DNA of 64,000 nucleotides from Patescibacteria group bacterium (GTDB lineage: Bacteria > Patescibacteriota > Patescibacteriia > UBA9570), in contig JBAZWO010000002.1 of assembly GCA_041660305.1 (NCBI GenBank), positions 4,739 to 68,738 of the forward strand. The letters run 5' to 3'. A model generated the notes under the pieces. The model was not told where the DNA came from and searched no databases. It saw only the letters and a list, made by a program, of their open reading frames with translations. Of the stretch, positions 61,110-62,342 are shown piece by piece. The position numbers and the translations under genes were made by a program. Positions within the stretch are counted from its first letter, which is position 1; every line of letters starts with the position of its first letter.

Positions 61110-62342
61110 ATGGATAATTTATTTAGTACTAATCTTAAAACTTCTCAGCCTTTAGCCGAACAATTACGCCCACAGGGGTTAAAAGATTTTGTTGGGCAAG
61201 AACAGCTAGTAGGCGCCAATGGCGTGATTCGAAAATTAATTGAGCAAGATAGGTTAGTGTCCATGATTTTTTGGGGGCCACCGGGTTCTGGAAAAACTAC
61301 CCTAGCTAAAATTATTGCTGAACAAACCAAAGCTAAATTTATTACGTTATCGGCTGTATCAGCTGGTGTGAAAGAGTTAAGAGTTATTGTTGAACAAGCA
61401 AAAAATGATAAAGAATTACATCAACAACGCACGGTTGTGTTCATTGATGAAATTCATCGTTGGAACAAAGCCCAGCAGGATGTATTATTGCCTTATTTAG
61501 AGCAGGGAATTATAACATTGATTGGCGCTACCACGGAGAATCCATCCTTTGAATTAAATAATGCCTTGTTATCACGGTGTCAGGTGTTTGTGTTTGAAAA
61601 GTTATCTAATAACAACATAAAAAATATTATTGATCGTATTGGAGCACAATGTGTTGTGGGAACGCGATATATCGCGTTCCCACGGCCAGAGGTAATAGAT
61701 TTAATTGTGAATGTATCCGATGGCGATGCGCGGGTAGCGTTAAATACTATTGAATTATTACAACAAACTTATACAGATTTATCTAAATTAACGGTAACTG
61801 ATGTAAAAACCGTGTTAGAAAAAGTAGCGTTACGTTACGATCGAGCGGGAGAAGAACACTACAATATTATTTCAGCGTTACATAAAACCATGCGGGCTGG
61901 CGATGTAAACGCGGCGCTGTATTGGTGCGGGCGCATGTTGTTCGCGGGCGAAGATCCTTTATTTGTCATGCGGCGAGTGGTAGAATTTGCCGCGGAAGAT
62001 ATTGGTTTAGCCGATCCGCCAGCCCTACAAATTTGTATTGCGGCGTATCAATCGGCTCATTTTTTAGGCATGCCAGAAGGGCAGTACGCCATTTTTGAAG
62101 CCGTAGCCTATTGCGCTAAAGCGCCCAAATCACGCTCTGTTTATAACGCGGCGAAACTAGTTGAAAAAGATATTAAAGATACCCCAAATTCGCCAGTGCC
62201 AATGCACCTAAGAAACGCACCTACTAAATTGATGTCCGCCAAAGGCGGATCCGCCTTTGGCGGAAAACAAGTAGGTTACGGTAAAAATATTGGGCAGAGT
62301 AATTTGCCGGAGCACTTGCAGGATAAACAATATTTGAAATAA
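61110..62342 (+). CDS. rarA: replication-associated recombination protein A (AAA+ ATPase)
   Basis: GPPGSGKTTLA, FIDEIHRWNK, GATTENPSFE, GDARVALN and the MgsA C-terminal domain (HYNIISALHKTMRAGD, HLRNAPTKLM). Confidence 0.93.
   Translation: MDNLFSTNLKTSQPLAEQLRPQGLKDFVGQEQLVGANGVIRKLIEQDRLVSMIFWGPPGSGKTTLAKIIAEQTKAKFITLSAVSAGVKELRVIVEQAKNDKELHQQRTVVFIDEIHRWNKAQQDVLLPYLEQGIITLIGATTENPSFELNNALLSRCQVFVFEKLSNNNIKNIIDRIGAQCVVGTRYIAFPRPEVIDLIVNVSDGDARVALNTIELLQQTYTDLSKLTVTDVKTVLEKVALRYDRAGEEHYNIISALHKTMRAGDVNAALYWCGRMLFAGEDPLFVMRRVVEFAAEDIGLADPPALQICIAAYQSAHFLGMPEGQYAIFEAVAYCAKAPKSRSVYNAAKLVEKDIKDTPNSPVPMHLRNAPTKLMSAKGGSAFGGKQVGYGKNIGQSNLPEHLQDKQYLK
61656..61683. repeat. perfect 28-bp palindrome inside rarA (GTGGGAACGCGATA|TATCGCGTTCCCAC)
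   Basis: Codon-aligned; encodes VGTRYIAFPR. Confidence 0.85.
62235..62264. repeat. perfect 30-bp palindrome inside rarA (TCCGCCAAAGGCGGA|TCCGCCTTTGGCGGA)
   Basis: Codon-aligned; encodes SAKGGSAFGG between the conserved TKLM and GYGK. Each half is itself a hairpin (TCCGCC-AAA-GGCGGA). Confidence 0.85.

Follow-up and report, generated by a model that had tools for sequence, protein, structure and literature searches.

Among the short palindromic repeats described in bacteria, those closest to the elements considered here are the repetitive extragenic palindromes (REPs), whose GTAG- and CGTC-tagged types include intragenic copies (Di Nocera et al. 2013, PMC3733652). GTAG-tagged REPs are known in GTGG variants, in sub-families with complementary changes of the stem and in intragenic copies; the latter are found above all in genes of replication and repair, in some cases at one and the same site across related species (PMC3733652). 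REPINs have been described together with their REP-associated tyrosine transposases (RAYTs) as REPIN-RAYT systems (Bertels & Rainey 2011, PMC3116915), and they keep their position while their sequence shifts to match the predominant RAYT of the genome (REPORTH preprint, 10.1101/2024.10.14.618302). Here, we analysed two perfect palindromes lying in frame within the rarA gene of a Patescibacteria group bacterium (GenBank assembly GCA_041660305.1, contig JBAZWO010000002.1, positions 4,739 to 68,738). This stretch of 64,000 nucleotides is called the window below, and coordinates refer to it unless another contig is named. In our opinion, both palindromes are quite probably copies, resident in this genome, of dispersed palindromic repeats that are small and non-autonomous, of the kind represented by REPs or by the Rickettsia palindromic elements (RPEs), and were not made locally.

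RPEs were reportedly described by Ogata et al. in 2000 as palindromic repeats residing in frame within functional genes. RPE-1 is about 100-150 bp long and confined to Rickettsia. RPEs have been discussed in two further works (PMC3733652, PMC10969869). The palindromes studied here resemble RPEs in being palindromic repeats placed in frame in functional housekeeping genes, where such surface decorations are tolerated, and in belonging to a small, host-dependent genome. However, they are only 28-30 bp long, their sequence is unrelated to that of RPEs, and one of their families extends across many phyla. Organellar genomes offer another parallel: the GC-rich palindromic clusters of yeast mitochondria and the double-hairpin elements of Allomyces mitochondrial DNA are short, reside in AT-rich compact genomes and show presence/absence polymorphism. 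Palindromes within coding sequences are also found in the mitochondrial genes of Nematomorpha (PMC6649704). As in our case, these are short GC-rich palindromes or double hairpins that can lie in frame in genes, but their sequences are unrelated and their sizes different, and the likeness is one of description.

The host gene and its two palindromes are arranged as follows:

61110..62342, plus strand: rarA (replication-associated recombination protein A), 410 aa, housing both palindromes; assigned by Pfam and structure 3PVS
61656-61683, unstranded: palindrome 1, perfect, 28 bp, arms GTGGGAACGCGATA and TATCGCGTTCCCAC (together GTGGGAACGCGATATATCGCGTTCCCAC), reading VGTRYIAFPR in frame
61655..61684, unstranded: inferred inserted unit of palindrome 1, 30 nt (N-GTGGG..CCCAC-G), encoding (V)VGTRYIAFPR
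62235..62264, unstranded: palindrome 2, the "double hairpin" (DH), perfect, 30 bp, halves TCCGCCAAAGGCGGA and TCCGCCTTTGGCGGA (together TCCGCCAAAGGCGGATCCGCCTTTGGCGGA), reading SAKGGSAFGG in frame
62235-62249: DH unit 1, 15-bp hairpin TCCGCC-AAA-GGCGGA
62250-62264: DH unit 2, 15-bp hairpin TCCGCC-TTT-GGCGGA

The open reading frame (ORF) at 61110..62342 encodes RarA/MgsA, as indicated by the Pfam domains AAA, AAA_assoc_2 and MgsA_C and by a match to the Escherichia coli RarA structure 3PVS (E = 4e-98). Its nearest RarA relatives come from Patescibacteria near Kerfeldbacteria, and the window itself has a GC content of 38.5% and is about 93% coding. In the alignment, rarA orthologs (about 30, with 64-79% identity and 389-401 aa) are without the 10 additional residues at either site. 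Compared with them, palindrome 1 adds 10 residues within a variable loop, and palindrome 2 is a clean 10-codon insertion at the ..KLM / KxxGYG boundary. Thus, an earlier sequence-only reading, which had located two perfect palindromes here and taken them for in-frame insertions of VGTRYIAFPR and SAKGGSAFGG, is upheld by the nucleotide sequence, by translation and by ortholog alignments. An AlphaFold model of RarA based on the ortholog alignment had a mean predicted local distance difference test score (pLDDT) of 79.8; residues 182-187 and 373-387, comprising both insert peptides, scored below 50 and were predicted as coil between helices. A 42-aa query spanning the RarA junction found only itself and one weak match in the representative library, and thus gives no information on how many RarA proteins carry the insert.

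Each half of palindrome 2 is a hairpin, as had been proposed, yet the minimum-energy fold of the whole element is one long hairpin (-17.7 kcal/mol as DNA, -26.5 kcal/mol as RNA). For both elements, hairpin stability amounts to -16 to -18 kcal/mol as DNA and about -27 kcal/mol as RNA, with z-scores of -6 to -8. In the window, five perfect palindromes have arms of 13 or more, whereas 100 Markov-2 simulations gave an expectation of 0.23 with arms of at least 10; in coding sequence, three have arms of at least 12, against 0.05 expected from 100 synonymous-codon shuffles of the 56 ORFs. The excess over codon-shuffled controls that the sequence-only reading had anticipated is therefore real, and several palindrome families of one size class do coexist in this genome and are tolerated in genes. 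An Rfam search with the palindromes gave no match at the gathering score, as all matches were weak, of a generic hairpin (miRNA-like) type and well under the threshold, while a literature search with the DNA motifs and peptides found no paper, its matches being cloning primers.

Chimeras in amplified libraries can yield palindromes; beyond this, nothing specific speaks for an assembly or sequencing artefact, the probability of which we consider negligible. An independent metagenome contig carries rarA with both palindromes (100% identity over 2,481 bp), as do two NCBI metagenome-assembled genomes (MAGs), and a RarA protein identical over 410 aa is encoded on a 304-kb contig of an NCBI Patescibacteria MAG. 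Moreover, related inserts are present in assemblies of unrelated projects, and the reading frame is kept every time.

Both palindromes possess a second copy in the same genome. That of palindrome 1 lies on contig L176, in a gene for a GT39 glycosyltransferase (CGTGGGAACGCGATATATCGCGTTCCCACG); the identity extends over 29-30 nt, and the encoded peptide is VGTRYIAFPR here too. The exact palindrome 1 sequence had two matches in one metagenome sample, namely L176 and the contig with rarA, the latter agreeing with the window at 100% identity. The rarA and GT39 genes co-occur in two NCBI MAG submissions, with adjacent protein accessions; one MAG has the proteins MFA5995320.1 and MFA5994817.1, on contigs of 304 and 491 kb. 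Metagenome matches to GTGGGAACG-N10-CGTTCCCAC were mostly due to chance or to another terminator-like repeat, and a match was kept only if its inner core was identical or palindromic. The second copy of DH is found at positions 9016-9045 of L176, within an intergenic hairpin cluster. Such identical copies at unrelated loci imply sequence copying and not local generation. In being multi-copy (two of palindrome 1 and two of DH in this genome), GC-rich and within the REP size of 20-40 bp, these palindromes are similar to REPs.

DH also occurs in many other genomes. A scan for TCCGCCNNNGGCGGATCCGCCNNNGGCGGA, with one genome per species, gave at least 120 stretches and at least 126 copies (lower bounds), where chance would yield about 0.2 or fewer. 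Among the matches listed, the hosts include many Patescibacteria classes, Omnitrophota, Kiritimatiellae, Verrucomicrobiota, Lentisphaerae, Planctomycetales, Ignavibacteriota, Bacteroidota, Chloroflexota, Dehalococcoidia, uncultured Gammaproteobacteria, Desulfotomaculaceae and Firestonebacteria, and the GC content of the locus ranges from 30% to 70%. Across more than 10 phyla, the 24 stem bases are identical. The loops follow the pattern nnA / Tnn, with A at the third position in 94%, and are fully complementary in just 24 of 128 copies. ORFs of at least 120 codons contain 81 of the 126 copies among the matches listed, and 71 of these 81 are in phase 0, reading SAxGGSAxGG, which either strand of DH encodes alike. 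The host genes include those of UvrB, DnaG, a RecJ-like DHH protein, PolX, GyrA, CysRS, AspRS, MurF, TsaD and DnaJ; the presence of copies within genes, often genes of replication or repair, and at times at one site in related species, is another trait shared with REPs and REPINs. With its cross-phylum spread and strong in-frame bias, the DH family appears to be undescribed. A phage or plasmid vector was considered and rejected: DH was found just twice in IMG/VR, palindrome 1 was absent from it, and a search for plasmid matches to DH gave none.

The sequence-only reading had favoured a general palindrome-generating process over a selfish sequence family, and this preference does not hold in view of the dispersed identical copies and of DH stems that are the same across phyla. 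Under such a process, the palindromes would be made in place by template switching, quasi-palindrome correction or hairpin-primed repair. It would fit the perfect symmetry of all copies in this genome and the variants that have changed symmetrically on both arms; these variants suggest that some arm-to-arm copying probably maintains the symmetry. It would also fit the palindromes of P0002-type rarA (see below) and of GT39, which substitute for native loop residues. However, neither arm of either palindrome is present at the empty orthologous sites, identical 30-mers reside at unrelated loci of one genome, and local convergence on one sequence of 24 stem bases in more than 10 phyla is impossible. 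As the origin of these sequences, local generation is thus largely refuted, and we regard it as very unlikely.

In rarA, codon alignments place DH at the identical junction ..KLM ATG ^ AAA K.. in the window and in three other lineages:

Window rarA: two DH units, loops AAA and TTT
P0003 rarA: two DH units, loops CTA and TCT
P0034 rarA: two DH units, loops GGG and TCT
P0019 rarA: one DH unit, loop TCT

All seven units (7/7) have the stems TCCGCC / GGCGGA, despite synonymous differences in the flanking codons. The window copy owes its perfect 30-bp symmetry solely to the chance complementarity of its two loops. The four DH-carrying rarA genes are scattered on a neighbour-joining tree and have cleanly empty sisters, P0014 beside P0003 and P0001 beside the window. 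Recurrence of the same peptides in distant RarA homologs, which the sequence-only reading had named as evidence against itself, was therefore encountered in part: SAxGG(SAxGG) reappears at the junction in three other lineages, but patchily and not as a conserved motif.

One might suppose instead that the inserts are old, vertically inherited and beneficial to the host, either as a flexible SAxGG linker or as an mRNA or DNA hairpin regulating rarA, and that selection kept them in a few lineages while most lost them. The use of one junction in four rarA lineages agrees with this supposition, as do the strong RNA hairpins (about -27 kcal/mol) and the stems that remain perfectly conserved while loops differ and flanking synonymous sites are saturated. 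Yet the distribution on the RarA tree is patchy with cleanly empty sisters, the identical 30-mer is shared by dozens of proteins without relation to one another and is found between genes as well, Rfam holds no match, and the insert peptides are predicted to be disordered. Overall, we find a beneficial vertical feature rather unlikely.

If the palindromes are dispersed repeats, as we prefer to interpret them, the manner of their insertion can be examined at two empty/filled pairs. At the first, rarA orthologs are empty at ATG^AAA, seamlessly and without target duplication. The second involves a hairpin cluster (family A) upstream of rarA:

61078..61090, unstranded: unoccupied DH target gggggTT^Aggggg, within the family A hairpin cluster; the paralogous cluster of L176 has DH exactly at TT^A

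When positions 9016-9045 are removed, L176 equals the window sequence TAGGAGAGGGGGTT joined directly to AGGGGGAGAGGTA, i.e., gggggTT[30 bp]Aggggg corresponds to gggggTT^Aggggg. Taken together, the two comparisons define an exact 30-bp unit without target-site duplication. The direct target-site duplication that flanks the terminal inverted repeats of miniature inverted-repeat transposable elements, which derive from DDE transposases, is seen at neither pair. A more suitable parallel is the "peel and paste" single-strand transposition of the IS200/IS605 family, known from IS608 and ISDra2, which depends on hairpins, creates no target-site duplication and excises seamlessly. The elements of that family encode TnpA and are asymmetric, with unlike left and right hairpins, and their insertion takes place 3' of a particular sequence of four or five nucleotides. 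Our palindromes share with them the stable hairpin substrate, the dispensability of terminal inverted repeats, the absence of target duplication and the seamless empty sites, but differ in that DH consists of nothing but a symmetric 30-mer, the flanks of which show a weak preference for T..^..A that is likewise symmetric (82% of copies have T at -2, on both sides). Two further ideas on DH targeting were discarded. Guide-type targeting found no convincing covariation between loop and flank bases, which share at most 0.09 bit of mutual information. Landing in the loops of pre-existing hairpins is contradicted by flanks that, beyond +/-3, are self-complementary at 3.0 of 11 positions versus 2.9 in shuffled pairs, although a few cases (L084, L176) do fit insertion into an existing hairpin loop.

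Palindrome 1 has relatives within the window itself. The group called family B (GTAGAGACG..CGTCTCTAC) is represented there by five copies, four of them (4/5) in frame:

37912..37941, unstranded: palindrome with arms AGTAGAGACGCGCTG and CAGCGCGTCTCTACT, in frame in ORF 37507..38217 (SRDALQRVST)
8868..8897, unstranded: hairpin AGTAGAGACGTTG-TATG-CAACGTCTCTACT, in frame in ORF 8550..9884
13705..13736, unstranded: palindrome with arms TAGTAGAGACGCGCTG and CAGCGCGTCTCTACTA, intergenic, directly past the stop of ORF 12240..13697
29635..29663, unstranded: hairpin GTAGAGACGCCCCG-G-CGGGGCGTCTCTAC, in frame in ORF 27946..30354
32203..32231, unstranded: variant GTAGATACGCCCCG-C-CGGGGCGTATCTAC with symmetric G>T / C>A changes, in frame in ORF 30460..32493

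Two more copies, identical to each other (TTTGTAGAGACGCATTGCAATGCGTCTCTACAAA), are on L176 at 3657-3694 and 5855-5890. The four in-frame copies of the window use two codon phases, one of which reads SRD..VST.

At the palindrome 1 site of rarA, GTAG-headed palindromes of 28-34 bp with a shared end nucleotide are found in the orthologs P0002, P0015, P0012 and P0019, and a fifth ortholog keeps a remnant:

P0002: palindrome with arms GTAGAGACACGCCG and CGGCGTGTCTCTAC
P0015: palindrome with arms GTTGTAGAGACATGCCA and TGGCATGTCTCTACAAC
P0012: palindrome with arms GTAGGATCACGCCA and TGGCaTGATCCTAC
P0019: 20-bp core
P0007: decayed remnant

The end that they share lies one codon and two bases 5' of a conserved P/S/L-D/E-V/I, and the palindromes of the orthologs have the same 14+14 design as palindrome 1. 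Close to the position that palindrome 1 occupies in the GT39 gene of L176, the GT39 ortholog P0122 carries a palindrome with arms GTAGGGACAGGTCT and AGACCTGcCCCTAC. The sequence-only reading had regarded the rarA palindromes as unrelated to family B, and for palindrome 1 this has to be revised: judging from the 28-bp 14+14 architecture, the GT[AG]G head and the common end nucleotide in rarA, it is to be seen as a GTGG-headed member of a GT[AG]G superfamily of 28-bp palindromes and a relative of family B, with a further copy in GT39. Variants of this superfamily differ by changes that are symmetric on both arms. Here, the similarity to REPs and REPINs extends to the GT[AG]G head (GTGG in palindrome 1, GTAG in family B), to sub-families with complementary stem changes and to a position that is kept while the sequence is replaced.

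Symmetric sequences of this length might also be recognition sites and not mobile DNA, i.e., uptake sequences or binding sites of dimeric proteins (28-bp cores like those of Xer/dif), enriched by drive or selection. Their 11-6-11 or 13-4-13 symmetry is indeed like that of recombinase core sites. DNA uptake sequences are generally biased to genome-maintenance genes and occur as inverted pairs, which would suit the present case, and Patescibacteria are thought to depend on DNA uptake. However, uptake sequences number roughly 1 per kb, whereas each family here has about 1 copy per 30-60 kb (1-2 copies per 64-75 kb). Uptake signals are species- or family-specific, whereas the DH motif is found in more than 10 phyla; furthermore, the inner arms vary and yet stay self-complementary, which a protein site does not need. 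This makes recognition sequences an extremely unlikely explanation.

For dispersed repeats of the REP or RPE kind, we can imagine the following course of events. In a 93%-coding genome, most insertion sites would be genes, and a survival filter would let only those copies persist that leave the reading frame intact and whose loop peptide is innocuous; the palindromes would be harmless within genes because they are 10 stop-free codons long. Movement would go through a folded single-stranded hairpin handled by a HUH (Y1) transposase of the RAYT or IS200/IS605 type, with seamless insertion and excision. The support for such a route is strongest in the case of palindrome 1 and family B with their GT[AG]G heads, while the enzyme of DH is left unassigned. 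Resident copies would stay in position and be renewed or replaced in place by the variant active in the given genome, similarly to REPINs, and such renewal would explain why orthologous sites have different variants while the stems remain perfect.

The mobilising enzyme is something that we infer. Contig L199 was the sole match both of E. coli RayT and of a profile built from 121 RAYT sequences. Its RAYT gene (2216-2842) corresponds to NCBIfam REP_Tyr_transpos (8e-18) and, once two inserts are removed, to Pfam Y1_Tnp (26.9 bits, over threshold). Six perfect GTGGG-headed palindromes (GACGCACGGCCGTGCGTC core) surround this gene between positions 1332 and 3157, and two of them interrupt it in frame. 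L199 thus presents a RAYT beside similar palindromes, as in REP/RAYT systems. A degenerate RAYT fragment is located at about 2975 of the same contig. Ten small ORFs of the window that were checked for RAYT either encode ribosomal proteins, ATP-synthase and the like or are without a Pfam match. A transposase between the paired DH copies of L014 was considered as well and dismissed, for these copies belong to a repeat of about 185 nt on either side of an ordinary gene. In this Kiritimatiellae MAG (L014, 4569-4752 and 6390-6572; also L011 and L059), DH forms the core of that intergenic repeat, which has several copies with 99-100% identity.

Several observations weigh against this interpretation. 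With the 121-sequence profile, no RAYT or other transposase was detected in the window (64 kb), in L176 (10.7 kb) or in 850 kb around DH copies; the enzyme search covered 75 kb of this genome, the size of which is at least 795 kb. L199 is Bacteroidota-like and belongs to a different organism, since its RAYT homologs, named RayT, come mostly from Bacteroidota. DH starts with TCCGCC and has no GTAG head. The palindromes are fully symmetric, their head being paired with CTAC, whereas classical REPs have an unpaired tag and REPINs a spacer. Other differences from REPs and REPINs are the location, as window copies are mostly intragenic rather than extragenic, the lack of a layout with two inverted REPs plus a spacer, and the host, a Patescibacteria genome with no RAYT in the 75 kb searched. 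The palindromes of P0002-type rarA and of GT39 replace native loop residues instead of adding a net 10 aa relative to homologs, and simple insertion is not the whole story there. Finally, the repeated use of one rarA junction by four lineages is left without explanation by dispersed repeats. Target-site preference was rejected as the cause of this hot spot: by DH flank preference, the junction ranks merely 19th to 329th of about 1190 junctions, and because of this low rank target choice does not account for the four occupations.

Going further, and with somewhat less than even confidence, we tentatively propose that TCCGCC-nnA-GGCGGA/TCCGCC-Tnn-GGCGGA is an undescribed 30-bp mobile element common to Patescibacteria, Omnitrophota, the Planctomycetes-Verrucomicrobia-Chlamydiae (PVC) group, Ignavibacteriota/Bacteroidota, Chloroflexota and others. 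It would be specialised for coding genes, comprising 10 codons, free of stops in the frames used and giving the same flexible peptide from either strand. It would insert and exit seamlessly, settle again and again at the same junctions in conserved genes (KLM^K in RarA being one) and be driven by an enzyme for which we name no candidate. Contigs L073 (755-784) and L026 (4515-4546) contain other elements of 30-32 bp that have the DH architecture with different stems, for example CCACCC-TAC-GGGTGG/CCACCC-GTA-GGGTGG, and at the sequence level these suggest a wider class of such elements. The TsaD ORF of L113 (around 998) holds four palindrome-type inserts of different families (VETRHASSL, ETQHAASLQ, SARGGSASGG and GRDVACNVST).

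If our reading is correct, REP-like palindromes, selfish or domesticated, thrive in the almost wholly coding genomes of Patescibacteria, where they survive as exactly 10 innocuous codons. The resulting 10-aa loops of conserved proteins ("SAxGG", "VETR..VSL", "VGTRYIAFPR") can mislead alignments, phylogenies and structure prediction; at the same time, they are natural markers of structurally permissive sites in essential proteins. The 24 identical DH bases over more than 10 phyla imply either that a recognition machinery is shared widely or that transfer between phyla is frequent, and finding the DH enzyme would address how REP-type elements move.

We would also like to comment on the surroundings of rarA and on other repeats seen in the course of this work. 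The family A hairpins mentioned above are located as follows:

61012..61082, unstranded: two family A hairpins, CCCTTTCCCCT..AGGGGAAAGGG and CCCCCTCTCCTA.TAGGAGAGGGGG, filling the rlmN-rarA spacer

This spacer of 119 nt, in the region 60960-61100, consists almost wholly of family A hairpins; in the nearest relative (L004), rlmN and rarA overlap and leave no spacer. The C-terminal tail of rlmN (..SSLPSGHPFS) looks element-derived. Downstream of rarA, the AT-rich stretch 62343-62470 repeats motifs like CTGATGA and CTGTGA. On L176, three different hairpin elements form a tandem cluster at 8964-9046, and the glycosyltransferase ORF 3696-5462 has proline/glycine-rich insert-like segments (PQPPKGGDNYSPCPLGKGVRGKGLGLRS). 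A recurrent conserved unit of about 60 nt, ..caggggtgtagtggGTGGGAACGCGTGGrAACGCGTTCCCACaccttttt.., was noticed in L140, L141, L152, L166, L177, L193 and other metagenome contigs (GC about 0.41); it consists of a hairpin followed by a T-run and is terminator-like.

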